From contig NW_026853995.1 of assembly GCF_026571515.1 (NCBI RefSeq), positions 1 to 64,000 on the forward strand: a stretch of DNA of 64,000 nt, written 5' to 3'. Numbering within the stretch: the stretch's first letter is position 1; every line of letters begins with the position of its first letter. The translations under genes were made by a program, and so were the position numbers. This document shows, in pieces, positions 29,201-62,959 of this stretch. Source of the DNA: Ruditapes philippinarum. Its lineage: Eukaryota. The notes beneath the pieces are model-generated. The model was not told where the DNA came from and did no database searches. It saw nothing but the letters and a program-made list of their open reading frames with translations.

Positions 29201-31170
29201 CTTGTAAACAAATAATAATTAAAAAACATCAGAATGTATGTGATATATTTGAAAAAAAAAAATTGCAGGGAAAAGGCATGGCCAAGACGTTCTGGTTGAT
29301 TGGAAAAGATCAGTTCAAGAAAGATCTACCCGATCCTCCGCCTCTATCTAAGTATGTGTTTTCTTATTTTCTTATATTTATTCTAGAAAACAAATGTTCC
29401 CGCAGAACAGGTCCTTTCCCAATTAGTTTACTTACATAAACTTTGCTGCTTTTGTAAAGATAAACAATAACGTATTATGCATGTTTACTGATAGCAGAAG
29501 TTAGTAATGTCGATCGAACAGCGAATATGCATGAAACTGCAGACAGTTGTTATGAATAGATAACCACTTTTATTTTCATCTATGCTTTATTCGTCAGCAT
29601 TTACTTCATAAAGAATTAAACATTGTCTAAAATGTGGTACGAACTTTCATAACGTACAACATCTATTTATGTTAACGATATAAAGCCTGGCACAAAAGTA
29701 ATGTAATCATTTTTAATATATCTTCTACTACTTTGTGTCATTTGTCTTTCGCTTATATATTTAATTTGATTGCATTATGTTTTCTATTTTGCTTCATAAA
29801 GTGGAGACAATCATGGGTAGGTACACATGTTCGTTGGATCTATTGAAAAAATAACTAAAAATTTGCGCTCTACATTAAGTAACAAATTAAGTATAATTAG
29901 AATTAATTTAAAAAGAGAGAGGAAAAATAAGAAGCATTCCGAGAAACATGATGAAGACTGTAGAAAACTACATGAACTACCCGCCTTAGACCTAACAGTC
30001 CACATTTGTCACAAACCAAATCTTAGCCTGTCATACCTTTTTTAAAAAATGTGTTTTTTTTTAAGAATTTCAAAATTGTAATTTTTTAACTCTCATAAAG
30101 CGTTTATGCTGAAATTGATATGTTTCATATACATTACAAGTTCGATTTGAATTATTCACATTTTAGTTATATATAAGTTTTAACCTGATGAAGATCATTG
30201 TTATGATCGCAACTAGCCGACTTTAATAAATAATCTCAACCTATTAGGTGGTGACGTTTAGTTTCTCTAAATCATTTTCTGCCCTCAATTTATAAATAGG
30301 TTGTACAATTAATATTCTTATTTCATTTACAGTTTGTCAATTGACGAATTTAAAGCTGGTGCTAAGAAGGGAAAACTGGATCCTAGCAAATTTACAAAAC
30401 GTGTGTCAACTGTTTCGTCTCCAATGTTTCGCTCAAGTACACCACCAGTACTTGTTGACAATATAAACAATCACAAGCCGTCCGAACAACGGGTAATAAA
30501 CTCAATTATACACGTGAGTCCTACACCAAATAGCCATTCTGGTAATCTTAACGAAATGTCAAAAGATATTGATGGAACAGAAAATGACGTTAATGAATTA
30601 TTAGAGGCAAAAGAGCAAATTTTAAGCAATATCGATGAGGTTATGAATCCGACAAAATCAGGAGCACATACAGATAATCTTAACAACAAGTATGTGTACA
30701 CTGATCATGTTTCAAGCAAGCAACAGACTATCAACGACAATAATAAAGATGTATGCAACAATCATGAGATAAGTGTGAATGTTAATAGTAACCTCTGTTT
30801 ACAAAATGATAGTGAACTGAACGACAACGATGATCAATCTAAATCGTGCGTTATAACTAACAATGTTAATGACAAACATGTGACATTTAAAAAACTATCA
30901 CTGGATAAAAGTGTTTCTAATTCATTGAATGAAGAGAATGAATATATCATTACAGACATAAAAGTAAATGATATCAAAACTTCATGTGATATTCATGATA
31001 ATAACTTGATCTCACCAAGAAGGAATATCGGTGAAAGCAAAACAAGGAAAACAAATTCACCACGTACAAAAATGTATGCAGGATCAAACCAAAACAGATC
31101 TAGAAACTCAAATGAAACAAATAGTGGATCTAAAAGAAGACGCCCTAGTTTTCAAGAGAGTCTTGTTTAA
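17051..31170 (+). CDS. Receptor-type (single-pass) guanylyl cyclase, retinal GC/GUCY2D-F-like, 5'-incomplete. Join 17838-17998, 18351-18456, 19937-20068, 20953-21030, 21528-21632, 22277-22348, 22850-23006, 23298-23447, 24773-24944, 25372-25512, 26505-26697, 27292-27466, 27713-27811, 28347-28438, 29269-29351, 29802-29816, 30333-31170, plus damaged exon 17051-17224
   Basis: All 17 exons are bounded by AG/GT with matching phases and total 2769 nt with no internal stop. Motifs: TM helix; RHENVN, CSRGSLED, HGNLKxRNC, SDFGL, APEHL (kinase-homology domain); [21 protein letters not shown] (coiled coil); [35 protein letters not shown] (class III cyclase with the GTP-specifying E and C). [21 protein letters not shown] and NHGLS resemble retinal-type GCs. 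Confidence 0.95.
17838..17998 (+). CDS. Receptor GC exon: juxtamembrane Cys pair and TM helix ([54 protein letters not shown])
   Basis: tttgcag acceptor, TG|gtatgt donor, WP..D.C...C pattern followed by a hydrophobic run. Confidence 0.85.
18351..18456 (+). CDS. Receptor GC exon ([35 protein letters not shown])
   Basis: atttag acceptor, AAG|gtgagt donor; completes the TGG codon; basic post-TM segment. Confidence 0.88.
18468..19070 (+). repeat. 33-bp minisatellite (consensus aagatttatctgtgacaccatactcaacaaagt), about 11 units, interrupted at 18511-18692
   Basis: Visible repeats; 11-aa periodicity in the ORFs at 18809 and 18873. Confidence 0.88.
18511..18692 (+). mobile_element. Unclassified ~150-180-bp structured interspersed element, copy 1
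   Basis: Homologous to 25208-25331 (+) and 34572-34728 (-); stems GGAACGGTA/TACCGTCC and CAGGCTC/GAGCCTG. Confidence 0.7.
19937..20068 (+). CDS. Receptor GC exon (IMNGNSN...DITDTARYN)
   Basis: ctttatag acceptor, AAT|gtaagt donor, 132 nt; ARYN joins GDLVHVK. Confidence 0.88.
20062..20590 (+). repeat. 21-bp minisatellite (consensus tataatgtaagtataaaatct), decaying rightwards
   Basis: Over 20 visible degenerate units starting at the exon/intron junction. Confidence 0.9.
20953..21030 (+). CDS. Kinase-homology exon ([26 protein letters not shown])
   Basis: ttttacag acceptor, ACG|gtaagt donor, 78 nt. Confidence 0.9.
21528..21632 (+). CDS. Kinase-homology exon ([35 protein letters not shown])
   Basis: atttcag acceptor, GAG|gttaga donor, RHEN and CSRGSL motifs. 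Confidence 0.93.
22277..22348 (+). CDS. Kinase-homology exon ([24 protein letters not shown])
   Basis: ttttcag acceptor, AGG|gtaagt donor, IKLDW.FK.SLL.DL motif. Confidence 0.93.
22850..23006 (+). CDS. Kinase-homology exon ([36 protein letters not shown]...)
   Basis: ttttaag acceptor, G|gtaaac donor, HGNLK and DFG motifs. Confidence 0.94.
23298..23447 (+). CDS. Kinase-homology exon ([12 protein letters not shown]...KGDVYS...SEPY)
   Basis: atttcag acceptor, G|gtgaga donor, APE and GDVYS motifs. Confidence 0.94.
24773..24944 (+). CDS. Kinase-homology C-lobe exon ([18 protein letters not shown]...[10 protein letters not shown]...GGK)
   Basis: tatgcag acceptor, AA|gtaagg donor, CW.E.P..RP motif. 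Confidence 0.94.
25208..25331 (+). mobile_element. Same unclassified element, copy 2 (internally deleted)
   Basis: taagccggtgct.ggggcg..acggta..ttgca..cagtacc..tcaaaccgagcctgcaa..ttgggc..aagggattct. Confidence 0.68.
25372..25512 (+). CDS. Coiled-coil/dimerisation exon ([46 protein letters not shown])
   Basis: cgtttag acceptor, AG|gtgaga donor, canonical signalling-helix sequence. Confidence 0.95.
26505..26697 (+). CDS. Cyclase exon 1 (IVADSLK...[15 protein letters not shown]...YDVYK)
   Basis: ttttag acceptor, AAA|gtaaga donor, FSDIVGFT. Confidence 0.96.
27292..27466 (+). CDS. Cyclase exon 2 ([15 protein letters not shown]...RIGLHS)
   Basis: ttttag acceptor, G|gtattt donor. Confidence 0.96.
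27713..27811 (+). CDS. Cyclase exon 3 ([33 protein letters not shown])
   Basis: ttttcag acceptor, G|gtaaag donor. Confidence 0.96.
28347..28438 (+). CDS. Cyclase exon 4 ([31 protein letters not shown])
   Basis: gtttcag acceptor, AAG|gtcagt donor. Confidence 0.94.
29269..29351 (+). CDS. Cyclase exon 5 ([27 protein letters not shown])
   Basis: ttgcag acceptor, AA|gtatgt donor, KGKG...TFWL motif. Confidence 0.93.
29802..29816 (+). CDS. 15-nt micro-exon ((N)GDNHG), phase 2/2
   Basis: Pyrimidine-rich tract plus aag acceptor, GG|gtaggt donor; creates PPPLSNGDNHGLSIDE, resembling the retinal-GC NHG(L/I)S tail motif; identical at 5054-5068. Confidence 0.7.
30333..31170 (+). CDS. Terminal exon: ~279-aa N/S/D/K-rich disordered tail ending [12 protein letters not shown]
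   Basis: tttacag acceptor, 278-aa ORF in the ORF track, phase fits the upstream exon. Confidence 0.88.
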
Positions 31171-41179: not shown

Positions 41180-44100
41180 AACTGTTTTCATTTTACTCTT
41201 CGCACAGGGAATATTCTGTTTTCCAGCAACTTTAATAAGGATAGCATGATTGGAAACGGTCTGTGTACAACAAAATGTTATACAGGTATGTTTTATCAAC
41301 ACAACACGCTGAATTTATAGAGCACGTCTCATTTATTTTTGTGTACATGTACGTAAAATCGTAAATACGTATTTCAACCCTTCTTTAGATAGTATAGAAT
41401 TATGGATTGCTAATTATAAGCACATTTCCGGAAAGTTTATGAAAATATGTTTCTATCTAGCTGAATCAAATATGGGTCGTAAATATGATCAACCTAGATT
41501 TTATGTTACTAGTAGACTACCCAACGTTTAACTCAAAATATTCTTTCATTCACACATATGTTTCAAAATCATTTTATAGAATTTTGATAATTTATTGACG
41601 TAAATATAAAGAGTTAAGTCACTCCATGTGAATTTGCGTTTTATCGTATTAAGCAATCTACTTCATGCTTCCCTTTGGTCACTTTGTCAAACACTCTTCT
41701 TGAGTTTGATGGTAAAGTTTTTACAATAATTCTTTAACGTATAATGAAAAGACTTGACACGTTTATCGATAAAATTATCATTAGTTTAATATCGAACAAC
41801 AAAATAAATGACATCTTATCTGCATTCAGACATTTAAAGGACATGATGAAAATGCACCTCTTTGATATTGGCGTTGCTCGATGGCTGCGGTTAAGTGTCT
41901 AACTAAAACTAGGTTATATGTTATCAGTAAGAAATGATAATGAATAAAAAAACCAAAGAGCTTTTGAGTATTTTGCTTTACTTCAGGTGCGTTCTGAAAG
42001 ACGAAACGCATTTAATTTACCCTGAGCATCAGGAATCCTGTTTGGGTTCACGTAATTGTGGATATCTCATTTATCGACATATTGCTTAATACAGCGTCTC
42101 GCTCGTCTGCCATGAACACACTCATTTCATTTACAGTACTGTTTCAAATTCATTTCAAGTATTATTATGATCATTCATTTCCCTAATTGTAAAGTATTTG
42201 TTGCCATTTCAATATTCATTATATTATATGATCTTTTTATTCTAGCCTTTCCTTCAAGTTTATTTGATAACTCATGATAAGAATGTAATGATTGTAAGCG
42301 TAATTCACATTTTCGAAAATTTTCTTTGTCGTATTCAGCAAGCTGTTATTATGTTTGCCCCTTATGAAACACAATTTCTGTGTTTGTTGTGTATTTTTAG
42401 TATTTTATCCTTAAATTGACAAGTTGTGACAAGGAGTTTTAGAAAATAATCTTAAGTTAAATAACGAACACGACAAAACTGACACCCAATCTGTATATAT
42501 TTAAAGGACGAAAGAAAATTAGGACAAGAAAGGGCCTTCACGTGTTTTGTTTTACTGAAGTTGCGTTTTGAGAAAAACAAATCATTAAACTGAATAAATA
42601 TTGCTGATTTCTTAAAAAAAGTCATCATGTCTCATATATTAACAGTTCGCTCAACGGATATGATAGATGTATATACATGTATTAGTTTTTTAATATATAA
42701 GCTAATCCTTGCAACTATTCTTGTACAGATAACCCAGTGTTCAAGATAAAGGCAACGTTCGTAATGTAAAAACAGACTGCTTTGAAAAGAAAAAAATACA
42801 CAATATGAATATCAACGGTTTAGAAACCCTTTTACAAACAAACTGGTAAATGATAAAATGTTGTGCTTTTTTAATGATTGCAAACAATTCTACTTTTAAT
42901 TATTGAATTGTATTAATTCTAGATTATATCAGATTACACCCGGTAAATAATGCATCCCTTAAGGCAGTATAATAATGCTTGATTAATTATGTAGTAGGAA
43001 CAAGTATTTAATATATATAAAAAATGAATCAAATGTAACTAAAATAGGAAGTGTCTCACTATTGCCTCCCTTTAATTAGATGACATATAAATTCGGTAAA
43101 TTAATATGCTTTTTGGAACATTTTGAGGAGTGTAACCTTATTCCTTACCATATCATGCGAGTCATTTAGGATATCTTGTCTTTTTGCATTAAACAGTTGC
43201 CTATGAATTACTTTTAACACATTTACCTTAAACGTATGAATGTCAGTATCGCAAGTTATTTCAAAGTGTGAGATATTTTTAGACAAAACGAAAGGTGTTC
43301 TTATGGTCAGGCGACCTTATCGATAATGTCCCTAATAAACTTGTCATCTAAAATAAGATTATCTAAAATTGACAAAACAGTGTATGTGGAATGGCAGCAG
43401 ATGAATGTTTTGTTTATCTGATTCTCGCGCAGTTATTGTAAAGGAAGTATGCAATTAATTATCTGCTAGAGTATCAACGACCGCTTGTACAAGCTTTTAA
43501 CAAGCCGATCAAAAGCTTCTTATCACACTGGCTCAGCTTTGAAGATTAGAACATATTAGAAGCCTTAATTAATCTATTAAGTAACAGAGAATTGTGGTAC
43601 CAATAAAACAATGTTATGTTTCTAATTTAGCTTTGTTATGCATTATCGGAACTCCATTTAGGTTTAATTAAATTTTATAAAGTATGCTTTGAGAGAAGTA
43701 AAACAAAAAACATTATCTAGAACATCGATGTTTCCGTTTAATCAAAATATCTTGCCTCAAATATTAATAATAATTAATAAAAATTAATTTTTTATGTTAT
43801 ATTTCAGCAATTAAACCATTTATTGAACTTCAATTATTGCACAGAAAAAAAGAACGTACATTATAAATGCAAGAAAAATGTCAAATAATAAATATTAATA
43901 AAAAATGAATATTATAATACTGTTGTACTGAAATTATAAAAGTATGAAGACGGAATTTAATTGTCTTTTTGTCAACCTGTTTTAATACGGAAAAAACCAT
44001 ATCAAACGATAACATTCGACAAAACTTATCAAAAATATGTCTAACGTTAAAATAACCGGAAATAATCACGTCTTGGGGCATGTCGATTCTTTCATAAAGA

Positions 44101-47100
44101 ACTTATTAAAAGTGCAACACAAAAGCATTAACTATTGATTTTGTTCATGTTTAAGGGCTCACTCTGTTTTTGTTCAACAAGTCAATGAAATGATGAATGC
44201 TTGAAAATGTTAACAAGAACCAGACTAAGAAAGAACAAACAAATGTATCCCCCGAGGCCATACACTAATGTTTGATTAAGTCTATAAAAAATAGTTTATT
44301 CCACAGACGTGTGTGTAAACCTTGACAGCGATATTTGGACTATATGATCAACAAAATGTATACATGTGCACTAGAGAGTTATGAGACGGGATAGCATCTT
44401 TATCTGACCTGACACGTTCTGTATGCGCTTACTTAATACAGAAGTACTAGTAAGTGAACCTTTTTAATAGAGTTGAAAATTTTCAAGAACTATCTTTAAA
44501 AAAGATAATCGACCGAAGAAAAAAGTGTCAACTTGCATATGTTAGCTTCTTAGTCCATGCAAAGTCATATATAAATGTTGGCATAGCATAGCTTGCATAA
44601 CATTGACGTATCAAATTCTTGTAAGGTTAGTAATCTTGTGAAATAGAACAATTTAAGATGTATGTGTTTCTTAACAAACCTGTGACATTTCGGTAGTGAA
44701 CTCAATTTCTAACACCAACATCTACACAGTCGGGAAAGCAGTTTTTGATACACAATATTTGATTAATATGCAAAAATATATAAAAGTTATAAAGTTTAAC
44801 ATACATCAATTGAACACATCAATAATCATATAATACATAAAAACATTTAATGAACATCATTAACAAAGAGTACCTGATAAGTTCTGATATTATTCTCATT
44901 ATTTTGGACATAATTTAAAACTCAGATCTGCAGTAAAATAAACCAAGTAAGTTCTTACCAAACATAAACAGTTCACTAATAAATGTAATGATATCTGAAT
45001 GCAAGAAGTATTGTTAAGCATAACTTAAATTTCTGAGCAATTTAACTAGAAAGTTAAAGAACTGTCTTGTACATATTGCTTAAGAACTATCCTTTACATT
45101 TTATTTCATAATGGCAAAAACTATATCTTACATTTTAGTTAAGAACTGTTCTTTACATCTTATTTTAGAATTGCAAATGAGATTCTAAGATTTCATTTTG
45201 TAATTTTAAAAAGACCAATGAAAATTCTTCTTACATTCAGATCTTCCCTGTAAATTTAACAGGAAATAAAGTGCAAATCTAAACGATCTTATTGCTGACG
45301 AATGTCATCTCAATCGACAAGTCAACCTAGAACTTAACATTTACGGACCATTACCTACACACTTAATTTTAATAGCAACTATTTTATAACACCGTTCTTT
45401 TTCCTTAGATGAGTTTTTTCCCTGTTATCATTCCAAACTCATTTGTTCTCCCAAATTAAATTTATTCTTCGTAATCCTGTTTTCTACTCCACTAAGTCCG
45501 ACACCTAATTATCTAGAATTCTCCAGAGAACAAGGTATAACCTTATCAATCTTCAGTTTTCTTAAAGTGAATATTAGATCTTCTCACGATATTTGGGAAA
45601 GATATCTATGTATTAGTATTATATGTTAATATATGAAAATATGTTATATAAGTCGATTTTCAACAATTTTACATGTACTACATCAACTTAAACAAATTAT
45701 AAACTTGCAAATAGTGTTGTGTATGTTTTCAAACTATTTGCAAGGAATTTAAGACCATAAAAAAATAGTAGTTAAATCCTATTTAAAATGTTTACATTTA
45801 GTTGCACCCATAAACCTTAATTGAAAGTACAAAATTTGTCAATATTACTTCAATAAGAAAACACAGCCGGATAAAAAAAAACACTTAGATTATTGTCTTT
45901 AAAAGAGAAATGGTTTTCTAAAATAACCACATTCTTCTTGATACTGTATTCAACATGAAAATCGAATCGACTGTTTGAGCGTTTATAAATCAGTAATATC
46001 AGGTGTACGACATGTTGAAAGTTCCTGTAGCAACAATGAAGCTCCTATCGGCGACTTTGAAAATAAAGTATTCTAAGCATTATAATAAAGATGTTTTACG
46101 TGTTTTACTTTTGTTAAAGTTGAAACGTTGTTTTGATTTTTTTTGCGAAACAAAACTTATTGGAAACAAATCTTACCGGACAGAAACGAAATAAACATTA
46201 TTTTGTCTGCATTCAGTTTTCTAACTTACATTGTCTGAAATTACACACACAAAAAATACACAACTGAAAAAAGATGGGTTTTCCCAACATGTACTCTCTC
46301 AAACCATGCATTGCGCTCGTCCTTGTTATCAGTGTTATTATGCATTTGATTTAGTGTGTCTTCATATATACAACAACCATATCATATTTCACGTAATTTC
46401 CTGTCTGCAAAAAACATATCATAAATTTTGAGCATTCGTATTTTGTAAATAATCTTTTTAAGTATTTCCTTGTACGAAAATGTCAATCCAAGATAAGACA
46501 AAGGTTCTAGAATATCATAATATTTATCTTATCACCTTGACTACAGAAAATTGATTCTTATAGCCTCAGCTTATTTGTTAGAAGGGTCAATTTTGACCGA
46601 TAACAGCAATGAGGTATATTTCGTAAATATATTATCACTAATAGTATGTTTTATAAAATTTTAAGCAAATTGAACAGTAAGGCTGATAATAGTGTTAGCA
46701 TTTTAAACAAAAGAAGCATCAGATACACTTCACATTAGCAGGTCAAAATGTTAACATGTTATATCTCTTTTGTTGTTGTTGTTTTTGTTGCTCTTTGAAC
46801 ATTTCATGCCACATTGTAATAATAACCAGATTAGTATAGATTGCTCTCTTCGATCGCTATTGTGTCTATAACTTGCTATAAAGTAGAAGATGCACTCTAG
46901 ATAAAACAATAATTTCAGAATATTGAATTTAATTCGCATTATTAAGTTATGTTTTATCTGGCAAATATTTTATTTCTTTTCATTGGATTATGACTTTATA
47001 TCATAAATAACATGTTATATCGTTCCATGACTGAGTCATTAATGTCGTTGACTTCAATCAACTTGCGCCTCACTTCGGGTTTCAATCAAGGAAGTCAAGG

Positions 47101-50100
47101 ACACATATCAATGTTATTGTATAATCAAAATATATATATATCTCGCCCAAAGCAATATCCCGTTCACCATAAACAAATCTATTTTAAAATAATCAATTTA
47201 AATGTCTATTTAATCTGGCAAGTGTGTTTCCTTAAAGTATGTTCGCTTAATAGTTTAAAAACCATTTCATCAGTTTGTGAAAATATAAATGTTATTTAAT
47301 GATATATCTAACATTAAGCTTTTTGTTTTTTTTCTAGTAGTATTTTAATTTTTCATAATTTGTCTGTTATATCAAATGGTACAAAATTGTACATTAAGCA
47401 CTGTCTCAGGATTATGCATTATGTGGAACAACGTCCGAAAATTTGGACACTTCAATGTTAAACTTTGAGGAAAAAGGCAAAATACAGGTATATTTTGCTT
47501 TAATGCACACGTCAAACTTCGTTAAACAATAATATAAATGCTCGTATATAATTCCAAGAACGTGGCAAAGACATGATAAATAAGCTTCCCCTGAGTCAGT
47601 TTCATAATGACTGATTATGTCTATTGATATGGATTATCGCCAGACGTCCATGCAGACGTTAAGAAAGAGAGAGATATGGCCAATATGATGAGTAAAATGA
47701 GAATAAGTAGAATAAAACATGTGCACTTTTAACTGCAGACACTATCTTTATGTCAAAAGCCTTTGAAAGTTTGTTTTCGACAAGTGCTTTTTTATGATAT
47801 GAATTATCACAACGACTTTGCACTTTAATAAATAAATATAAACAACTGTATGAACTGGACTGATCAGAATGCTTAAACTCCTATCTGAGGACGAAATAAA
47901 AACTTATCTATGTTTATGCGAAAATGTCAACCAAAGATCTAAGACGTGAGTCATGACTTAGAACTATGTTAATTACTGAATCCTTATCCTTACCTAATTC
48001 CTTGTTTTGTTTATGCTTTGTTTTATATATTTAAACTAATCTTTGAAATGGAAATCATTATCAATTTTTTAGTGCAAACGTATTTAATGGACAAGTCAAT
48101 GACTGCAGTATAATACAAAATGCACAACGTTGGTATTATTAATGTAAAGTAAAATACAAAACATAAACTGTGATCCATAGTGACATGCCAATATATCAGT
48201 TAGGTTGTATCTTTTCTATAACGGTTATTTCAAAAACCAAATTAAAAAAACGTGTCTTTAAACCATAATAAAGATGTTAGATAAACTCAACGACGCAAAG
48301 AATACGCAATATGATAATACGATAGCCAGTTAAAACAATTGTCTAAAAAAACGCTCATAGCTGACCGTATACTGGCTAGTAAATATCCCGTCAGAAACAG
48401 ACAATTCTACAAGCAAATCTACCATTAAAAATGAACGGACCATTGCCTACAACAATCATTCCAATTGTATCTTGCTTTATTACACCCTAATTGACAAGCA
48501 CCCTAGATTTGTTACCACTTGTTGTCACTTAAATCTCTCAGTTCTCTCCAAATTAAATTTATTTGATGTAATCAAATATTCTTCTCTACATTTTCTTACA
48601 ATTAATCATATAAGATTGCTCTGAGAGCAAAGCATTACGTTCTTTTTCTTATATAGAAAAATCAGTTCTTATTTAAATATAAAACATACGAAAGATATAT
48701 GTATTTATGTTGCAATGTCTATGTTATTCGCACAAACCGTTGAACTATGACAAATCTAGAAATATGATGTATTCCACAAGTTATATGAAAAAAAAAACAA
48801 CATAATTTTTGTCACCCAGCCCTACCATAACCCGCCCATCCCTATTTACTGCGGTATTTTATAAAATCAAGGGAAAATATTTCATTTCGGTAGAATAGTG
48901 TTATATAAAGTACATAAAGTAAATGATAAACATGAATAATCTTATCGATATTGCGTAAAAAGGTAAAATATTTTGACGGCAATTTATCAAATTTTGCTCA
49001 ATATACGTGCATCAGACGATTTTGACTTTTTTGTACAATCAAATTTATCAAATGATCGTGAACGCGCTAAAAGAAATATTTCAATACTTTTGACATTAAT
49101 GTATTTGTGTGATTTATCTGTAACTGTGTTGAACTAGCTGTCATAAGTGTAGCTGGATAAATATATTCCCTGTAAAAAAACCATTTTATGAATTAGTTTT
49201 CGAAACGGTTTGTTAACACATTGTCATGAATGTTTATTATAAGAAGAAAACAATGCAACATAAGAATTATTTTTTGTGAGATCAATATTACTATGAAGAC
49301 AAACCGAAAAGGTGTAGATTATAATTCAAGCCCATATTGTAAAACAAAATCACCGACTATCCCATTTCTTGCACAAAGAAATGGTTCATCGGTGTAAAAA
49401 TGTCGAAAGTTTTATATTTCCTGACTTTACATATGGATTTATCTTTATGTTTTGGTCGACATGCTTATGTGTTTGATGAGCCCCACCTAGTGTTTAAGCA
49501 CCCTTAGTGCAAACGATACGTTGCTTTCTACTTGAAAAATGATAACCCTGTGAAACACAAAATATTTGTATTTCTTTGCAGTTAATATGGCTTTGATAGT
49601 GAAATGGCCAAATCTGATTTTTCTACAATACACCTTTATTCTGACTGGCTATCTTCCATGTGTATAAGTACTAAACTAATAACTAGACTGTTAATGAAGA
49701 CTTGAAGATGAATTCGGTATATTATAATTTTAACATTAACCATTATTTCCTGACATGATACTTATTTCCTTAACAATTTTAAAAACAAACACACATTTTG
49801 TTAAGTAGTTCCTTGTAGAAATTACTGATAAGATTACACATGTCCTATAAAATCACCTTGACAAATGAAGAATGGATCGTAGAGCATTTAATTATTTGTA
49901 TGATTAATAAGTTATGCTACCACATAATAGAGATAGGTCAATTTTGAAGCCCACATCACATAGCAACAATGACATTCAACATTGAATTTCAAAAACAGCT
50001 ACATAGAATACAAAGGAATACAAATTCGTCCATATAAATATACTCAACCGTTATAAAAGTATTTTTTTGCATTACGTTATGATAAGAAATGAAACTAACA

Positions 50101-52089
50101 CGCTATGATCTTGCAAGTCCTGATAAATAGGTATATGTAAAATTAATGCGTGACAACGCTCTTATTGACTCTGAACTAATCTGTTATTTTGAAATGAACA
50201 CAATTTAGAATCTTTAACTTGCCATTGTGGCAACTTTCAAACGACCAATCGGATAATATTTTCCTTTAAACTACCATATTATTTCTCACGGACATTTCTT
50301 GCTGTTGCATACAGAAATGCCGTACATTGCAAATCAGTAAGGAAGCACAATGTAAAGTAAAATTAATATTATTTAATACATCTATATCAATCATACATAT
50401 ATAAGAAAGCAGCAACTTATAAAATCGTTTTTATGATATAAAAAGCTGTAGGTCCCTCTTGGAAATTTTTTATAGCATGTTACGTGGTAAAATAATAGAA
50501 TTAACAATATATCAATTTTATAATTATGATAACTCGCAAAATCGTTAATTAAAATTGTACACAATGATATATAAACATTTATAATTTAATGAAGTAACGA
50601 TTATAAATTTAGTAATATTGACTTAGCTTGAGGCTATATATACAGTATTTTGTTTGGTAATCGTCTTTTAAATATTGTTTTTCTCCGAATATATTACAAA
50701 TGTAACTATACATCCATGCTTGTCGTTGAGTGATAATCAAGTTCTAGTTTAATCTAGACATTAAAAAGTCAAATTAATAAAGGTATGTTAAAATAGTTTT
50801 GATTGATGATTGCTTAAGGTGTATTTCTGTTTGAATCGTAAATAGGCAATCTCATTTAATTATAACATTACTCGCAAATGTATTTCTCAGAGCCCGGTAA
50901 AGAAGCGATAAATATGCATCCCCTGGGGCAGAATTATAACGCTGGATCAAACCTACCATTATACATTCGTTCACAGTCAATTGGAAAATGAACGGTCTTT
51001 TTAACCCTGTGTAGAGCAGGAAGAACTTTCGGATATTGTAATGTGACAACGGATCTGCACATTAACAATAACTCAATCGTCATTTGACTTGTACTGATTT
51101 TAATATTGAAGACAAAAGTTATGATCTTGCGAATGTATTAACACTTGTTTCATATAATAGTCTTGGCAGTAAATATTTTTCATTCATATATCTTTATTAT
51201 AATAGTATATAACGATTTCCAATTTGTAATCACGTCCTATAAATGAACAAGCTGAACTTATAGAATTATTCCAAACGCATAAAATTTATATTATTAAGTC
51301 TAGATATAAGTAAATAAGTGCTAATTTAATTCGTGCTTTTTAAACATTTATTATAAATTGTACTGCTGTATTGCTTTGTGAATAAAATATGTTCAAATAC
51401 AATCCATTTCGTCTCTTAACATGGATGTGAATCACAATGCTACATGTAAAGCTGTCTAGGGCACATAAAATCACACAGTGTATGGTTATAAATATCAAAA
51501 CAACTTTCAGTGTTCCTCATTTTAAGCGGAACAATAAATGCTCAATGGCATTTCAGAAACAAAAATCTCACATAGGGAAACCTCTAAATAATATTATACA
51601 GACAATTACATCCCAGTCTTATTTATATGGCATCGACGTTGCATAATTTAGTAATTGACAATCTCCCTTATAAAACGTACTTTTAAATTTCACAAGATCA
51701 AGAAAACAACTTTGAAATGTTTTTTTGGATTGTCATAAGGTAAAAACATAGTAAAATATGAAAAATTAAGGCAGTCTAAGAATACTCCTAATCCTAAGTC
51801 TCAATACTGAAGGCTAGAATATCTGGAGACTCCTCGTATAAGTATTAATGGTTGTTTATTTCTCTGTATTGTTTACAATTTGGTCGTTAAACCTAAGTAT
51901 CACACAGAAGAATTATGACCCTTTCGACCTAGGCGTCATGATCGTCTTTTTGATATGTTTTGAATTATGGATATACTATTCTCATCTTTGAGTAAAATAC
52001 TTAAATCATTATTATGTTAACATGTGCACGAGTCAATAATTTGTAGAGACTATCGGTTTACATGTTACGTTCATTCATAGTTCATTCAT

Positions 52090-52552
52090 AGTAAGAGCTT
52101 TTCATATTGTACTGTTTTGAACATTAAGACGTGTCTAGTGTCAAGGCATGGCTTGCATTCATATGCTGGAATACACTCATAACCTTTTTTATCACATAAA
52201 CCGCGGCGCAGGAGTGTAATAAAGCCATTTAATAAAAACGATATTACACTAGTGTAATAACACTTTGACGTGACGTCATTTGCCTTATATATAAACATAG
52301 CTTAAAGCGCGCTAATGTTAGCGTTACACTATAAACGCGTGGTTGAAAAATTGCTCATTTTAACAGTTTAATGTTCTTAATTTATGTATGTGATAAAAAG
52401 AAAATTATATTCGTGTATATTCAATACTAAATTTATTGAACTCGTTGAATAAAACAATATTATGCTCGCCAGAGGCTCCCATAATATGATTTTATTCAAC
52501 TCGTTCAATAAATTTAGTATTAAACTACACTCATTCAATATCCTCTATATAT
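52090..52552. mobile_element. Hairpin-ended element (palindrome 52413-52530)
   Basis: aatactaaatttattgaac..gttgaataaaa..atattatg / cataatat..ttttattcaac..gttcaataaatttagtatt around ctcgccagaggctc; small palindrome ttacactagtgtaa at ~52244; left boundary approximate. Confidence 0.65.
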
Positions 52553-55500
52553 GCTGTAAACACGATTTTGATATCAAAAATATTTTATGCTCAAATTTGA
52601 TAGTTGAAAAAAGTTGAAGCAACAACAAAACGAAATAAATTCTGATAATTACCATACAATCTCTTTTGAAATGTGCAATAGACATATTGTGTATACATAC
52701 AGAAAGGAACTATGTTACCCCCTACAGGTAATCACAATATGATACCATACATGTCTGGTAGTTTTTATAAGAATTGATCAAATAAATTTGACAAGAAATA
52801 CGGCATGCAGCTTCTCAAAAATAGTTCATACCTTCCTATATCCAAATAACATAGGATGAATAACGATATTTCAATAAATATATGCCTTGTCTTGCTTTGC
52901 TAAAATATAGTATACAAATAGTAGACATAAGGGAAACCCTGTACGTTTAAAGTAAACGTTACATGAAGTCAGGAAAGGACTTGAAATGGATTGCTTTACT
53001 TTAGGAATGCTCCGAGAGAAGTTAAACAAAAACATTATCTAGACTTCAGTGTTTCCGTTTAATCAAAATGTCTTGCCATAAATAATCATTCTTATACACT
53101 GCAATTCCCTGTCAGTCGTAAAAGAATTTACATCTGCCACAGAAAAGTTGTATAAACCTTTGAACTATTTCTTTTAAAGGAACTTCTTTCAGTACTATGG
53201 ACAGCAGTTTTACTAATCCAGGATATATAACTCCATAATTATAGCTCTTTCTTCATCTAAAGCATTTTGATTATTCGTCTAGTTTATAAACTTTACAAAA
53301 TCGGGTGATTCTGTGTCAAGATGTTGTGCAATTAAGGAAAATTTCGACATTGCAAGCAATGTACTGTTTCAGCAATTCAACCATTTTCATGAAATTAATT
53401 TCATTTACAGAAAAAAGAAACTACGTTTTAATCAGAAGTATTAAATTCAAAAAAGATGTCAATTAATAAAATTTGATAATAAATAATTAAAGATACTATA
53501 CTGAAAATTATAGAAGTACAATTAATTGAAGGAATTTAATTTTCTTCTTGTGACCTTGTTACATTAGGTTAAATACGGAGAAATCAAACATATCAAAATC
53601 CGAAAAATCTGTTCCAGAATATGTCATACGTGATAATAACCAAAAAAGAATCTACTCTTGTCTTGCCGCTTGTCCTTTTTTTTTCAAATAAAGTTAACTA
53701 TTGATTTGGTACACGTTTTAGGGCTCCATTTGTTTCAAGTTAATCAAGGCCACAATCGCATGGGAATGCTAAATGCTATAATATGTTTACAAGAACGAGA
53801 CTGAGACGGAATAAACAAATGGATCCCCTGAGGCCTTACACTAATGTTTGATTAGGTCTATTGAAATAGTTCATTCCGCAGACGTATGTGTAAACTTTGA
53901 TAGCGATTTTTGGTATATGTGATCAATAAAAGTATGTGCACAAGAGAGTTATATGACAGAAAACATTTTATCCGACTATGTATGCGCTTAGCTCAAATGG
54001 AAGTAGTAGTGTCTGTACCTCTTTTATTGAATTGAAAAGTTTTTAAGAAATGAAACTATGCAAAGCTCATAATATAAATGAACGATCACGTAACATTTAT
54101 TCTTATACATACTCTTCACATTTATAACACATGCACATTCAATTTGGTACTTATGTTATAAAAAGAAAATAATATTTACAGGTCCGTAAATATTACCATG
54201 TAAGGTAGTCGATTATACATTTCCGGCCACCTAGCTCAATCCGGAAAGAAGCGGATTCAAAATCTAGAGATCACTGGTTCGGTCATAGAGCGAGTGAAAT
54301 TTTCTACGAAGCAACGAAGTGTAAGTTTTTTTTTATCTCGGAAACCTGATTAAAAAGCACGTGAAATAAGTAACAAGCGGATAAATTATAGTAATTACCG
54401 ACGAGTTGTCACAGAGAGGAGGTTATGTAGGATGAAATTGGCGAACAATCTATTCAAATCAAAACATTTATAACCCTAAACTATATATTCCTATTTCATT
54501 TGCTATAACGTAAAAAAAACACTCTGCAAACAACTTTTGATCTCAAAGAAAAGATGATATGAACTCGCAGAACTCCTTAAATTCATGTTTATGTTTAAGC
54601 ATTTCACCTTTAACCAAGCAAATACTGTTTTAATCACATGCGAATATAAACGATATAGTCGCTGATAAATGTCGTCTCAAAAGAAAAGCAACCTAGTATT
54701 AAACATTAAGGTACCATTACCTACACATATAATTCTTAAAAACTGTTTTGTAACACCGTTTTTTCAACTCCCTAGATTCGTTGCCTCCTGTTATCTCTCC
54801 AATCTCTATTATTTCCCCCAAATAAAATTTATTCGTAGTAATCCTGTTTTCTACTCCACTAAGTACGACACCTAATTATCTTGAATTCTCCGAAGAACAA
54901 AGTATTACTTTATCAATCTTCAATTTTCTAAAAGAGAATATCGGGTCTTCTTCATTATTCGGAAAATGATATTTACAAGATCTATGATTGTTATTGTATA
55001 TTCAAAAATGACAGATGATTTACATGTACATCGATTTTTTCAATTTATAACAACTTGCTAATAATGTTGTGGTTGTTCATTTTTGTATTTTCTCTTAAAC
55101 GATTTTTTTTCTATTTAATAGACCTTTGGAAACTATTTGCAAGAAATTTAAAGCCATTGAAATTAAGATGTATAATCTTATTTCTGACTGAAACGAAATT
55201 TATAAAAATGTTAATTTAGTCAAAACGGCACATGTTTCCTCCCACAAACCTTTACTGCTTGTTGATTTCGTATGTGAAAATATAAATCTATAATTGTAAT
55301 TGTTTTGCACGAAAAGGAACGTATTGTTCCTATGTGATTGTTAAAATTTGTAAGATGGTGTTAGAAAAACATGAGGGAAAAGGCTTGTCAAAAGGCAAAA
55401 GACAAAACTGTTTCTCTATGTGTAATAACATCAATTCTATCACAACACGTGATTTTGTCACTATAGACAAAGAAGGAAAAAAACCGGTTTTAAACTGCCA

Positions 55501-56033
55501 ATAAACAGTGGTTAGGGACTACTTGTATATGCGGCTTTTTATGTTTTCGCCCTCGATTATATAGTTTACAAAGCCTTTTAAAGCAACAATAAAAATCATT
55601 TGTATTTATATTTTCAGTTCTTATAATGTTTTCTTTTCATACAATACCGAAATAATATTTCACATACACTAACATTACATATTTGATCCATATCAGTTAA
55701 TATTTTGACAAAACGTCGCCAATCCGTTAGCAGCGTAATGACGTCATCGTAAGTAAACAACTCATACATAAACAAGCTAACGTTATTTAATACATACAAA
55801 AATAATAAATGGGGCACTGATGTATACACAATACGATGTAAGTTTTGATTGTTGAAAACTTGATAAAATAACGTTTTTTCTTTAATTATTTTTTTTTTTG
55901 TTTAATATTTTCTATATCTTTGCAACAGTAGGGTGCAAAAATCGAACAGCGTAATATGAAAATCGGCACCGGAAGTTATTTCCGCTTGAAAAAATAACAT
56001 TAGTGATCTTCCTTATTTCATCGTGAAAGAATC

Positions 56034-56192
56034 GAAATGACATCGGCCTGAGAGGTGTATATCGGCTATTTGTCAATTTGATGCGAAATTATTAACCACT
56101 CAGGCCTACGGCCTCTTGGTCAATTCCTACGCATCAAAACTCCAAACCAGTGGTAAATAGCCGATAAACACCTGTCAGGCCGATGTTATTTC
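56034..56192. repeat. Long imperfect palindrome (end of a hairpin-type element)
   Basis: gaaatgacatcggcctgagaggtgtatatcggctattt / aaatagccgataaacacctgtcaggccgatgttatttc around aggcctacggcct. Confidence 0.8.
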
Positions 56193-56847
56193 TTAAATAT
56201 ATTCCATGTCTTGCAAAAGTAAAGTAATATGAAATTGCTTTTCAAAATAGATATGTCATGTGCAACTTAAAGTTTGCAAGTTATTATAAAATATTAGCTA
56301 GTATATACTTTTACACAGAGAAATTGAAATAATGGTACGATCTAACAAAACGTAAACAACTAAAAGATGGCCTTATCTCTTGTTCTATCTCAAACCATGT
56401 AATGATATTAGCCTTATCATCATTGATATTTTGAACAAGATTTATTTTGTCTTATATTTACAACAGCCATCTCATATTTCACGTAAACTCCTGTCTGCAA
56501 CAAAATTAACATATTTGAACCTATTTTTTTTTTTTATGTTTAAGTACATTTCCTTGTACGTATTCATTACTTTCAAAATAAAACTAACATTCTAGAATAA
56601 CATATCTCGTTGACAGCAGAAAATTGATTCTGAAACCTTATCTTATTTGTCAGAAGGGTCAGGTCATTTTTTAAACCATCGTCAGACAACAGTAATGAGC
56701 AATGTTTTGTGAATATATTATCATAAATAGTATGTTTTATTTTGTTTAAAGCAAATTGTACAGTTAGACTGATACCATTTTTACAGAAGCATCAAATGGA
56801 TGCACTGCTCATTAGCAGGTTAAAATATTGACATATTACCCCTCTTT

Positions 56848-56880
56848 TTGTTGTTGTTGTTGTTGTTGTTGTTGATGATG
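56848..56880. repeat. (GTT)n/(GAT)n microsatellite
   Basis: ttgttgttg...gatgatg; shorter paralog at ~46770. Confidence 0.85.
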
Positions 56881-58707
56881 CTTTTTGAACATTTTCACAA
56901 TATTGTAATAATTACAAGATTTGTATAAATAAAGTGCCTTTACTCACTAAAAAATTAAAGTTGCACTCGAAAATAAAAACTATAATTTCAGAATATTGAC
57001 GTATGAATATCAAATTTTACTTCACATTAAAGTTATCGGCTGAATTTTCATCATTTCTGAATTCTCGAGTTTTTTCACTTATAGTATTTGATCTTAACAA
57101 TAGCAAAGAGTTGTTTATTATGACAATAAAGTTAAAACATGCTATATCGCGTTCGTAGATAAAGGGTTAATGTCGCTGTCTTCAAACCTTTCTAAGACTT
57201 CTTTCACAGGAGGAGGCTAATTTGCATATCATTTGTCTTTCCTTTGTATATAACAACAAATTTCAATACTGCATCGTTTCCATGTTGATCAGTCGCCATG
57301 ACTTGTATGTGAACATCAATTTGTCACTTTAATCTAAAATGTAAGGACGTCGGTAAACGTATTTGTATTTAAAACAGTTTCATTTTAGGCTTTGGCATTG
57401 CTTGCCAGCTACAGATGAGTGGCCAGTAGAAATTCAGATTTGCAGATATGTTTTCCATCTTGCATTTTTTTTATTTGTAACAACACTGTTACTGTCACTC
57501 GTACAATCATACGAAGACTTTATTTGAGGAATACGTCAGCTGATCAACTTTCATTATTTATAACACGAGCGATAGATATGATAGAATACGTTAAACGTGT
57601 TATAGTTTTATTAGTGTTACATGTATTATTATATGAGTACACAAATGCATGTAAGAGTAATGACATGAAAATACGAAAGGGCGTTAAGCGTTTGCTTTAC
57701 TCCAGATGTGTTATGAGACAAGTCAAGGACAAAAATTACCTGGAATTTCAGTGTTTTTATATAATAAAAGGTTCAAGTCTAAAATATAAATATCTCGCTC
57801 AAAACAATATACTGTCTAACATAAAGTAATATTTAAAAAAAATGTTAATGTTAAAAAATCTTGTAAATGAGTTTCCTGAATGCACTTTCGTTTAGTAATG
57901 TGAAAATCATTTAATCAGTTTGTGAAGATCTAAATGATATTTAATGACATACATGTATTTAGCTTTTTCGTTTTAGCCTCTTTTGATTTTTGATAAATTT
58001 GTGTCTTTGTATTATAAAATGGAGCAAATTTGTACATTTCTGTCTCAGACTTATGTATAACGAGGAACAACTGTCGAAAAGTTGGAAACTTTAATGGTAA
58101 AACTTTGAGCAGAAAGGTAAAAATATGCACGTGTACCTCACTATTTTAACAAGCATATTTGATTATGTTAAATCTTGCTAAGCCTTGTTTAATTAAACAA
58201 AGATATAAATGTTGTATATAATTCCAAGAACGTGGCGAGGTCGTGATAAATATGCATCCCCTGGGGCAGAATGATAATGAATGATAATGTTTATTGATAT
58301 GGATTATCACCAGACGTTCAAAGGGATATGTGGTAATTAGGAAAAAACATTTGCACTTTTAACAGCAGACACTGTCTTTGTGTCAAAAGCCTTTTAAGTT
58401 GGTTTTCCCAAGTGCAACTTTATTTTATGAATAATATGATTACAAGGACTTTGCACTTTATTAATAACTTATAGACAACTATTCGACTTGGACTTATCAA
58501 AATGCTTTTAAGAGGACGAAATAAAAACATATTTATGGTTACGCAAATATGTCAACCACACACTTAGACTTGAATCTTGGCTTAGAACTATGTTCTTTAC
58601 TGGATCCTTATTTTACCTTATTCCTCGTTTTATTTATGATTTGCCTGTTTCGTTTTATTTATTCAAACTAATCTTGGAAATAGAAATGATTATCATTTTA
58701 TTCTAAT

Positions 58708-58935
58708 TCAGCCGAGTGGTTATGGACGTTGACTTCAAACCACTTGCCCCTCACCGCTGTTGGTTCGAATCCCGAAAGGGACTTTAGATTATTCATATTT
58801 GGATTCTATCCAGCTACCGTACGAACGTCGGTGGTTCTACTCAGGTCCCCGTTCGTGCCTGAAATAATGCACTGAAGGACACCTGAGGTGTTCCTTCACC
58901 AGTGAAGCTGAAACCTCGCCAAATGACCTATTGTA
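58708..58935 (+). mobile_element. MetaSINE-type tRNA SINE (bivalve), near full length
   Basis: A box (a)GCCGAGTGG, B box GGTTCGAATCC, core tatccagcta..cgtcggtggttctactcagg..cgttcgtgcctgaaataatgcac..acctgagg..tcgcc.aatgaccta, recognised from memory as the Meta domain; absent in the paralogous 48.1-kb region. Confidence 0.8.
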
Positions 58936-61900
58936 CCTTTAAAAGTATAGTCAATCAAAGACAATTAATGTCTCTTAGATCATAGTATAAGTCAATAACA
59001 CCATTAATACCACCAACACCTGTTTGATTGCTTACAAAAACAATTGTTTTAAAAACACACGTATCTAACCGTATAGTGGCTAATAAATATCCTGTCAGAA
59101 ACAGACAATGTTGCAAATCTACCATTGAAAATGCACTTACTATTGCCTTCAAACCTCATTGCCTACTACAATCATTCCAATTGAATCTTTGCTTTGTTAC
59201 ACCGTAATTGACAAGTCCCCTAGATTTTTTACCTCTTGTTGTCACTTTAATTTCTGAGTCTTCTCCAAATTGAATTTATTCGCGGTAATCAGATTGCCCC
59301 CTCTACTTGCTGTGACACTTGATTATATTAGATCTGTGAAAGCAAAGCATCGCGTATTTGTTTCTCATAGAAACAATCAGTTTGTGATTTTACCAGATTT
59401 CAATAAAAACATACAATAAATTACTTATGTTGCAATGTTCATGCAAATTGCACAAATCGTTGAATGATGACAAATCTAGAAATATGTATTTTACAAATTA
59501 TATGAAGGAAAACAATCTTTTTTCCCCACACAGACATCCGTTCCCTTCTCATTCCCGTTTACTCAGACATTTTATAAAACCTTCTCAGATAGTTTATAAA
59601 ATCAAGAAAAAAAAACATCTCATTTTGGCAAAATGATGTAATATAATCTTTACAATGTCATATATTTCATAGGATATATAAAGTTAACAAATATTCATGG
59701 AGCATCTAATCGATATTGCGTAAAAAACAAATATCCATGAAATAATCTGATTAATTTTGCGTAAAAACCAAAATTGTTTGATTGCAATCTATCAAATATT
59801 TTTCAATGGACTTGAAACAATTCAAGTTTATGTTTTAATACGATTGAAATTATCATATGATCGTGAAAGTGGTAAGAGACCCATTTTGGGAAAAGTTCTT
59901 ACACCATTAATGTCGTAGTGTGATTCATCTGTAACGGTATTGAACTAGCTGTCATAAGTGTAGCTGTATAAACAACATTCCGTGTCAATAGACCATCTTA
60001 TGTATTAGTTTTCTTTAATCTTATCAAAACCTTTTAATGGTTTGATGACAAGTTGTCAGGATTGTTTAAGATACATTATTGCACCTGATAATCTTTTAGT
60101 AATGTGGGTTATAATTATGATATGAAAAACAAACGTAAAACGGATAGATTATAATTTTAGCACATATTTTGATACAAAAACACTGACTTCCTTTTCTTAA
60201 AAAAGAAGGTTCGTCGAAATATTTCTTACATTATATGCAACATTTCTTAACTTACATATAGATATATATTTTGCTAGACATGCACATTTTTAATGCTTAC
60301 CCTAGTGCTTAAGCACACCTAATGATGCGAAGGATCAGAGAAGTTATTTATATTAAGAAAATGAAAGCATTTGAAACACAAAATATTCACGTTGCTTGGC
60401 AGTTAATTTTATTGATTAAAAAATTTCTGTTAAGATTAAACATTGATTTCTTAATAATACACTTTTTTCTGATGATCTGCCATGTGTATAAGTAAACTAA
60501 TAACTAGACAATCAATAAAGACTTGAAGCTAATTTCAATATCAATTGTAATTTTCCGACATGATACCTGTTTCCGTAACAATTTAAAACAAGAAAACACT
60601 TTTTTAAGTTCCTTGTTTAAATTACTGATAAGATAAAACACGTCCTATAATATCACTCCGACGAAGGAAAAATAAATAGGAGAGCATTAAATTATTTGTA
60701 TAATATATTAGTCACGCTACCACTCAATTTTGAAGCGTGCTATTGCTGTTTTAAGGAGGGTTTAAACCTGTTTAACAATGGTTTCTAGCATGCGTCATTC
60801 GCTTTAAAGCCAATAAAGTAACACATTTCTTTTATATAGTAATTCAAAACAATACGTGTTGCAGCAAATATACAATTTAAAAACTTTAACTTCACATTTC
60901 ACTTTATTCTAACAGTAAGTTATAGAAATAACCAGTTTGTTTTCTGCTTTAATTACTACTTTTAATGAATATTATTTTTGTCGTCATGTCACATTGAGGT
61001 TTAAGTAAAAGTAATAGGTAACATTGGAATAAATCTGAGGTACATATACTGTTCTGATTACACAATGATGTGATTAATGATACTTGACACATACGAAACA
61101 GCATACAAGCAAACTTTAATAATGTATGGTTTTAATTGATGCATGCTTTATATGATTACTCGCATATAATTATTTCTTTCAACCCGGTAAAGAAGTGATC
61201 AATATGTATCCCCTGAGACAGAATTATAATACTTGATTAAGCCTACCACCAGACATTCATGTAAATATTCACATAATTATATATTCAATAGGATGTTTAA
61301 CTTTGTGAATGCATAATTATCCATAAGAAGGAAAGACATTCGGATTTTGTAATGTGATAACGAATTTGCACCTTATTGATAACTGAATCGTCATTTGACC
61401 TATACTGCACATAAATTAAATATGGAAGTCACTAAGATTGCCCATTTTGACTCATTAGCTCTTAATGAACAAAATGAACTAATTAACAAATACAAAACTC
61501 ATAACGCATGTATTATGAACTTTATGTATGTTTTTATATTTAGATTCATTCTTAAAAAACAGTTATTAAAAACTAAAACATGCTTTTATTAGCTGTATGT
61601 TTCGAGAATATAAAATGTCCAAATATTATGCATATCGTTTCTGAACATGACTGTGGATCACAATGCTACATGTATTGATATCAATGGTTTATAATATATA
61701 AACACTGTATGGTTGTAGGACAGCGTTGTTTAATGATACCGTAATTGACGACCCCCTGGATGTTTTACCCCCTGTTGTCACTTAAATCTTATATTTCTCC
61801 CGAACTTAAATTTATTCGCTGTAATCCAATTTTCTACTTCACTCTCCCTGACGCTTAATAATTTTATCATCTAAAATCTCAGAGAACGACTAGACTTCCA

Positions 61901-62959
61901 TTTTCAAAAGACGAATTCAGCTTGTCAGTAATCATTTAAAGACATTAAAAAGACATACGTATTTATTTTTTAAAAGGTTTATGCAAAAAAAAAACTTATA
62001 AATATTTTAACAATGGTTAAACTTATAAAATTATGTATCTAATACAAAACGGTGTATTTAATTAACAAGGAAAAAATAGCTTTCGTGCATTTACCATCGT
62101 TTAATTTCTCTTAAAATAGTATTCATTGCTGAGAGTTGACATTTTTTGACATTTGTTAATCACTGCAGCTAATTTAAGTTATTTTTCTGACCATAAGTAT
62201 ACGAAAGATAAATAATTTTTACTTCTTATTTGTCATTGTAAATGATATTTATAGAGGACGATAAATAGGCGTGGTATCTGTTTTGAAAATACCAAATCAG
62301 TTAAAAAAACGGTATAAACCAAGTCTCGATTACAACGGTTTCATTCAACGAGTTCATAAGAAAATTAAAAAAGAATCTGCACTAATTAAAATTCTTTTTA
62401 TCATCACACAAAATACTTACACTGCAATCATAACGGTTTTACAACGCTCTTAGTAACAAAAACGCCATATACATAAGTAGGTGCACATAAATTACATGTG
62501 TACTGTTTTTACAGAATGATACTTTTTTATTACTCAATTATTGAAGAGCTTAACATATTTACAAACTAAACATACACAAAACATGAAATCTGCATGAATA
62601 TTAACACAGCAATTTCAAATCATATATCATCTGTTACACACTTCATCCAATTCAGGCAAATATCATATGGCAATATATGCTGATATCTACATCTATCTCA
62701 TATAGTGTACTATCAAGCGAATAGGCATTATTTAGAAATAAAGATGAGTTAAAATGACATTGATTTTAAATAACAGGCTGCATATATAAAACCATCATAA
62801 TTACTGTAGAAATATTGAAAGTTTGTTACAAAATTATAAAGTATTCAAAATTCATAACGATAAATTCAGAATGCCCCCTTAAGTTTGAGAATAAAATTGA
62901 CGTCTGTCATCGTTTACTTTTTACCGTGATTTGTTATGCTTTATACCTCCTTTACACTT

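Follow-up and report, generated by a model that had tools for sequence, protein, structure and literature searches.

The closest described arrangement is that of the mouse olfactory-receptor enhancers known as Greek Islands, in which a composite of adjoining Lhx2 and Ebf sites occurs in 35 of 63 separate enhancers, with support from ChIP, ATAC and EMSA (PMC5608512). The motif of the COE factors (UNC-3/Collier/EBF) is given as TCCCNNGGGA (PMC5498135) and the TFAP2/AP-2 site as GCCN3-5GGC (PMC9877354). A search of the literature for homotypic enhancers multiplied by duplication in bivalves returned nothing comparable, but it was too narrow to show their absence from print. Conserved non-coding elements in paralogous copies, and duplicated (shadow) enhancers, occur in gene-poor regions. 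The locus described here resembles these in its short constrained blocks, its tandem and segmental copying, its redundancy and its losses of single copies. It differs in that the constraint is about twofold, and is measured only among the paralogues and alleles of one genome. An exact-pattern scan of metagenome contigs gave no match.

How are the motif copies arranged? The window that we analysed is a stretch of 64,000 nucleotides of Ruditapes philippinarum, the first part of contig NW_026853995.1. The first-pass annotation had reported eight motif copies in it, and all eight lie at the coordinates and have the sequences reported, all on the + strand. They show 0–3 mismatches against 18 specified positions; the next-best site in the window shows 5 (+ strand) or 6 (− strand). 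Class alpha comprises the copies at 15080..15109, probably allelic to the one at 44249 and not independent of it, at 44249..44278 and at 53825..53854. Those at 47588..47617 and 58258..58287 belong to class beta, and those at 50920..50949 and 61210..61239 to class gamma. The copy at 42956..42985 is weakly gamma-like (tree support 0.76, with about 80 bp aligned). The proposed order, alpha-beta-gamma followed by alpha-beta-gamma, stands, but the count of three classes does not: a fourth class, delta, lies at contig position 65099, just outside the window, and the leading gamma is the weakly assigned 42956 copy. Similarly, the 47588 copy does contain TGAGTCA, but this word is not peculiar to it, being present in three of the six beta copies.

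The motif is the best-kept 30 bp of a block of about 120 bp (block A, about −55 to +60 around the motif, as at the 44249 copy). This block family has 17 copies on the contig and five on a second contig, C12719, which is probably allelic to the locus, 22 in total. The flanks had been described as barely alignable between classes. It is true that only discrete blocks align, separated by unalignable DNA of variable length; yet more than the motif aligns, namely block A, a block B of about 300 bp lying 0.5–1.1 kb downstream, and an upstream block common to the alpha and beta units (52961..53130, with its beta counterpart at about 57660-57780). Block B was located at 45293..45588 in the 44249 unit, 48373..48672 in the 47588 unit, 54659..54952 in the 53825 unit, 59077..59386 in the 58258 unit and 61642..61926 in the 61210 unit; neither it nor the upstream block is assigned a strand.

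All eight motif copies descend by duplication from one non-coding block of about 120 bases, which was multiplied first in tandem and then by 50-kb segmental duplication. The four old classes go back to a single ancestral unit made up of blocks A and B; the alpha-beta-gamma triplet underwent further duplication, and three inverted segmental copies of about 50 kb carried along the gamma-beta end. The motif copies owe their fixed spacing to common descent, and they have been lost or broken repeatedly. In the C12719 counterpart of the 53825 copy the TAAT..GAT part is gone through a 13-bp deletion, two of the three segmental paralogues of the 61210 copy are broken, and deletions run through the motif in 3 of the 22 family copies. 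The hierarchical duplication proposed in the first-pass annotation is borne out, the family being confined to one locus on two contigs. A dispersed transposon was considered and rejected: 11 of 12 pattern hits, and all hits of the DNA searches (6/6 and 9/9), fall on those two contigs, so that the motif is not a piece of a genome-wide element. These searches give lower bounds.

What proteins might the motif bind? The paired-class homeodomain dimer site at P3 spacing is TAAT-N3-ATTA, and this was present in 0 of 21 copies. The N5 form was present in 9/21. GATWA was found in 16/21 copies, and RYAAAYA, upstream of the motif, in 13/21; the former we take to be a homeodomain- or GATA-type site and the latter a forkhead-like word. 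The AP-2 and homeodomain-palindrome labels given earlier fit a minority of copies. The AP-2 consensus GCCNNNGGC, a GCCN3GGC palindrome, occurs in 0/21; the likeness to the AP-2 site as described in PMC9877354 lies in the CC-NNN-GG shape (relaxed SCCNNNGGS, 8/21), while many beta, gamma and delta copies lack the GG half. Compared with the COE motif as set out in PMC5498135, the left half TCCC is kept, the two following positions are free (CT, CC, TT, AA) and purines come next (TCCCNNRRR, 17/21). The right half, on the other hand, is degenerate: the stricter TCCCNNGRGA occurs in 2/21 and the exact consensus TCCCNNGGGA in none of the copies. Judged on these words, a COE/EBF-like TCCC half-site together with GAT[T/A]A appears to fit better than the AP-2 and homeodomain-palindrome labels. 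As in the Lhx2/Ebf system (PMC5608512), the elements are non-coding and repeated, and an EBF-type site (here a candidate), relaxed to a pyrimidine run followed by a purine run, lies at a constant distance from a site of homeodomain type. Unlike the elements described there, the present copies share one common ancestor, their two putative sites lie 7 nt apart, and other parts of the genome show no enrichment of the pattern.

The suggestion that the motif changes more slowly than its flanks was upheld. Within classes the block evolves at about 0.43 times the flank rate (gamma copies 42956 and 260932 left out; misalignment may inflate the flank rates), and the 30-bp motif shows 31 changes against 72.7 expected. 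The reduction is seen independently in three of the four classes; the beta class shows none in the 30-bp motif (0.533 vs 0.546 changes per site). In the five comparisons among intact segmental paralogues, the 60-bp window on the motif stands at percentiles of 0.96, 0.96, 0.86, 0.92 and 0.92, and G+C matching leaves these the same. Against C12719 the five motif windows stand at 0.63, 0.08, 0.53, 0.83 and 0.73. The mean is 0.72 over 11 scored comparisons (z ~2.5; the comparisons are not independent, and 2 of 13 were unscorable). Since the within-class rate is reduced and all five intact paralogue comparisons lie between the 86th and 96th percentiles, moderate constraint is likely. With a rate of change about half that of its surroundings, the block is likely to be an ordinary regulatory element, and the reading we lean towards, with some reserve, is that the motif would be the core of a duplicated non-coding block that is probably cis-regulatory and under moderate, redundant constraint.

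Could the motif instead be a neutral survivor, a stretch of old functionless duplicates that escaped indels by chance and was picked afterwards? The deletions through 3 of 22 copies speak for this, as do the missing reduction in the beta class, the rank of the motif window (sixth among the 54 aligned in all three paralogues) and block B, which between classes is conserved no less than block A (0.68–0.74 vs 0.53–0.73). So does the 42956 copy, which is absent from a common haplotype through a deletion at 42843-43265, the majority form in a deep DNA run (depth 121.5 vs 24.9). However, copies that the first-pass annotation had not seen score high when intact, and the reduction recurs across classes; we regard neutral survival as unlikely. 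We are more doubtful still of the model put forward in that annotation, in which a rigidly spaced composite site for a pair of transcription factors, selected for its spacing, was multiplied into a homotypic enhancer battery. The mouse olfactory enhancers are a precedent for it in the form given in PMC5608512. The spacer was said never to vary from 7 nt, and this is so in 8/8 window copies and in all 19 of the 22 family copies that keep both halves. Across classes, moreover, ATCCC, TAAT and ATTA undergo 0.5–1.0 changes per column against 2.7 in the spacer, a circular contrast, because the motif was picked on that pattern. When copies of one class are compared, however, spacer and cores are conserved alike (0.47 and 0.41 times the flank rate). 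At the flank indel rate 1.4 gap openings are expected within classes in the spacer, P(0)=0.25, and 5.9 in the 30-nt motif, P(≤3)=0.16, so that an unbroken spacer may arise by chance. Reuse of the motif at unrelated loci was not found either: outside the family the spacing pattern has 3 matches in the 1.41 Gb genome, and the reversed control has 12. The conserved spacer, the chance expectation, the deletions, the haplotype lacking a copy, the probably allelic 15080 copy and the lack of genomic enrichment together count against this model, as do the AP-2 and palindrome counts, and leave selection on the spacing itself unsupported. A modified form is a locus-private COE/EBF plus homeodomain composite enhancer of rigid spacing, built by duplication into 17 copies or more that fall into four ancient classes, spread over a 250-kb gene-poor region next to a receptor guanylate cyclase and varying in copy number between haplotypes. 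It would be an invertebrate counterpart of the Lhx2/Ebf grammar; we think this, too, very doubtful. The chief lesson of the locus is that duplicates inherit a fixed spacing, which is no evidence for a transcription-factor grammar.

It is likewise improbable that blocks A and B, duplicated along with the unit, are what is left of an ancient retroelement, or of the exons of a gene or lncRNA that is dead or seldom expressed. In favour of this are the discrete conserved blocks amid unalignable DNA; some block edges in some classes carry splice-like words (by eye), some frames within block B are open, and 5 of 22 block A copies score above the maximum of the null with a C-terminal profile of CR1-type LINEs. 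Yet these matches do not keep one register from class to class, the sense-strand scores are raised too, and block B scores no higher than the null with the thumb profile, whereas four of five other LINE clades scored 61–94. Thumb and C-terminal similarity are not in one register, and a CR1-type LINE 3' remnant (CR1-type profile only) was rejected. Class-specific indels of 1, 2 and 13–14 nt and an omega of 0.5–1.7 with no consistent frame (classes with at least four copies) also argue against exons, as does a strict splice scan, in which the array yielded no spliced exon that is conserved and the one candidate lies outside it, at 84.9 kb.

The codon-periodicity scan of the contig gave nothing beyond noise, but lacks a positive control, since it is silent over the cyclase exons as well (the second copy is full of indels). 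Pfam families were matched by 0 of 11 unit ORFs and, above the curated cut-off, by 0 of 131 ORFs of at least 56 aa at 64–114 kb; elsewhere, the 100 longest of 242 ORFs of at least 72 aa gave transposon-type domains only. Cadherin-like exons had at first seemed to be present at 64–110 kb, but this was not borne out. No protein relatives of the block peptides were found, the single match being a tandem-repeat protein (hhalign probability 3.7%). An array of protein-coding exons or pseudogenes was rejected on periodicity, dN/dS, Pfam and protein relatives. So was a structured RNA or snoRNA: Rfam gave three weak matches, none within the array, and RNAalifold on the block gave no structure on the + strand and −1.4 kcal/mol on the − strand (shuffle fraction 0.105).

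If the block is regulatory, its slow rate would reflect protein-binding sites, the most plausible candidates being the COE/EBF-like TCCC-NN-RRR half-site and the homeodomain- or GATA-type GAT[T/A]A site, which the upstream forkhead-like word would join in many copies. The target might be the guanylate cyclase next to it or some gene that lies off the contig. In four RNA runs the array had no specific coverage or spliced joints, but the cyclase too was nearly silent in the three RNA runs mapped to it; the candidate element might act in cells outside those sampled. Were the block regulatory, its 22 copies, with their point changes, deletions and presence/absence alleles, would form a natural mutational series for mapping a cis-element in a group of animals in which few enhancers have been mapped.

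Positions 1..16430 (+ strand) are a second copy of 22.5–45.5 kb. This copy, noisy at its ends, is probably an allelic haplotype that was joined wrongly; haplotype duplicates in an assembly inflate such arrays. The nearest gene, 12–30 kb from the array, is the 3' part of a receptor-type guanylate cyclase (17900..31170, + strand), with a predicted transmembrane segment, kinase-like, coiled-coil and cyclase exons and a long last exon.

How widely is the 30-bp motif (a TCCC-type core, a 7-nt spacer and TAAT-N5-ATTA) distributed? A scan of 18 specified positions recovered every one of the eight copies in the first-pass annotation (15080, 42956, 44249, 47588, 50920, 53825, 58258 and 61210), all on the + strand with 0–3 mismatches; the next-best window site had five mismatches on the + strand and six on the −. 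A profile search taking in the rest of the contig, C2482 (300 kb), and a second contig, C12719 (57 kb), found 17 and five copies, respectively. Over the 1.41-Gb genome, the count proposed in that annotation, a degenerate pattern matched 12 times (nine on C2482, two on C12719, one elsewhere) against none for the reversed control. Two unit fragments used as DNA queries matched only these two contigs (at least 6/6 and at least 9/9 matches, both lower bounds). With matches so confined, the motif is not part of a genome-wide, dispersed transposable element. We conclude that the motif is real and locus-specific.

How are the copies related? They sort into four classes, alpha, beta, gamma and delta, the first delta copy lying just outside the window (C2482 65099). 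The hierarchical duplication suggested earlier holds: the window's alpha–beta–gamma triplet occurs twice, about 10 kb apart, with larger segmental copies beyond. A segment of about 45–50 kb (64–110 kb of C2482) recurs four times in inverted orientation along this contig, at roughly 70–90% identity; three of these copies end in gamma and beta units, the last also with delta and alpha. Between classes three blocks align: block A (about −55 to +60 around the motif), block B (about 300 bp, 0.5–1.1 kb downstream) and an upstream block common to alpha and beta units. Since the block B core is as alike between classes (0.68–0.74) as the motif (0.53–0.73), the repeated unit is larger than the motif. 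The following 236 kb or so (64001–300051) hold five copies of the segment, four inverted, and no host gene was detected there. Several blocks of 90–96% identity among segment copies (for example 63220–63415, 68030–68290, 69070–69285, 72050–72340 and 108505–108580) are conserved as much as the motif or more. At 70620–71700 and 176810–179400 there are a ~21-bp satellite, in both orientations, and a ~165-bp tandem array. A Tc1/mariner-type transposase fragment (L032:4881–5237, −) and a DUF1759 retrotransposon-type ORF (L033:3594–5216, −) were also seen.

Are all these copies distinct? Window 1–16.4 kb repeats 22.5–45.5 kb, carrying a further copy of the 3′ part of the receptor-type guanylate cyclase gene and of the DNA beyond it. 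In a deep DNA run, a joint from 42842 to 43266 (GTT between) has depth 121.5 and the undeleted form 24.9, adding up to the last-exon depth of 145.7; the joint has the form found in the first copy (1–16.4 kb). Thus 15080 and 44249 are likely alleles rather than separate copies, and 42956 appears to be a presence/absence variant; contig depths being flat means, this inference is suggestive, short of proof. C12719 (80–94% alike) is also probably allelic. In mussels, hemizygosity is reported to be extensive (PMC7653742). Cyclase exons in the first copy are set apart by single-base indels, scattered and of raw-read type, and the intact gene begins at its transmembrane exon directly after a homopolymer-rich join at 16.2–17 kb. 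The contig is therefore probably chimeric at this join (about 16230–17000), and the first cyclase copy not a true pseudogene. Some 300–500 bp just past the cyclase stop (32000–32500 and 7338–7637), likely a constrained 3′ UTR, are 99–100% identical between the haplotype-like copies, whose intergenic DNA is 8–15% different.

Does the motif change more slowly than its flanks, as had been proposed? Within classes (20 copies, leaving out 42956 and the truncated 260932) it carries 31 changes against 72.7 expected from the flanks (0.43×), the beta class, with no reduction at the 30 bp, being the exception. The cores stand at 0.41×, the spacer at 0.47×, N5 at 0.41× and the whole −60 to +60 block at 0.57×. 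Against segmental paralogues, sequence never seen in the first-pass annotation, the 60-bp motif window reached percentiles of 0.96, 0.96, 0.86, 0.92 and 0.92 when intact, and 0.52 where the motif is deleted; in the comparisons with C12719 it ranked 0.63, 0.08, 0.53, 0.83 and 0.73. Two of the 13 comparisons fell outside any alignment, and G+C matching had little effect. Among 54 windows aligned across all three paralogues it came sixth. A block of about 120 bp is likely under moderate constraint, one of several such in the region.

Is the spacing itself selected? The 7-nt length is indeed constant in the 19 copies keeping both halves; were indels as frequent as in the flanks, seven nucleotides would stay unbroken within classes with P of about 0.25. 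Deletions run through the motif in three of 22 copies: the copy near 260932 lacks its 5′ half, the one at 288314 lacks 8 bp and one on C12719 lacks 13 bp. In a fourth copy TAAT has become TGAC. A genome-wide pattern of conserved letters and spacing only gave 13 sites, ten in the family and three elsewhere; the reversed control gave 12, so unrelated loci show no reuse of this spacing. The Lhx2/Ebf composite, by contrast, is reused across mouse olfactory enhancers (35 of 63; PMC5608512). This analysis does not support selected spacing, the element that made the first reading striking.

What might bind? An AP-2 site is given as GCCN3-5GGC (PMC9877354) and the COE consensus as TCCCNNGGGA (PMC5498135). 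Among 21 copies, GCCNNNGGC occurs in none and SCCNNNGGS in eight; of the homeodomain palindrome, TAAT-N5-ATTA stands in nine and TAAT-N3-ATTA in none. TCCCNNRRR occurs in 17, TCCCNNGRGA in two, GATWA in 16 (beta copies mostly GATAA) and upstream RYAAAYA in 13. The G before ATTA, formerly assigned to the spacer, is invariant. The copies are better matched by a candidate pairing of a COE-like half-site with GAT(T/A)A than by AP-2 plus a homeodomain palindrome, such labels being weak in 70% A+T DNA. TGAGTCA is present at 47588, though common to three of six beta copies rather than peculiar to it.

What, then, is the block? Its copies share one origin, were multiplied by hierarchical duplication, evolve about twofold more slowly and have repeatedly been lost: a duplicated conserved non-coding element, a known kind. 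Our literature search, too limited to show absence from print, found no description of this locus. We lean, somewhat beyond even odds, to a candidate cis-regulatory block whose copies would be redundant, so that each would be under relaxed selection. A neutral survivor would suit the beta class and sit poorly with 0.43× overall; we consider it unlikely. A dead exon or retroelement remnant is less probable still: blocks A and B at the array yielded no coding signal and no structured RNA, and a LINE ORF2 likeness spotted by eye did not hold up, its few high scores lying in registers that differ among classes, with block B at null level. About as improbable is the selected rigid grammar, which the constant spacer suits and the deletions do not.

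In four RNA runs, read pile-ups were confined to dispersed repeats. Motif bins had depth 0–0.2 in three runs and, in the fourth, background up to about 4 covering 29/30 bins; there were no splice-type joints among those shown. Cyclase exons were also nearly unread in the three RNA runs mapped to them, so the runs miss cells with an active locus and the blank at the motif says little. Repeats inside the array at 52190–52550, 55440–56190, 58711–58930 and 62960–63070 draw nearly all reads; a hairpin lies at 52420–52524, and 58711–58930 contains a tRNA B-box-like word and is presumably SINE-like. A SECIS_1 match at 33471–33532 (−; 28.6 bits against the Rfam gathering score of 35, E 0.17) is probably chance.

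Which gene might the block serve? The cyclase (3′ part at 17900–31170, +) is the only gene found on C2482 and a candidate target; its 3′ end is 12–30 kb from the array, and the segmental copies lie 180–270 kb from the gene. The assembly contains no close paralogue of it, the next-best match reaching 70% in one exon. An open frame of 285 codons following the cyclase domain (30313–31170, +), without Pfam family, is probably its unusually long low-complexity last exon. Intronic minisatellites lie at 18700–19052 and 20042–20527, with units of 32–33 bp and 21 bp.
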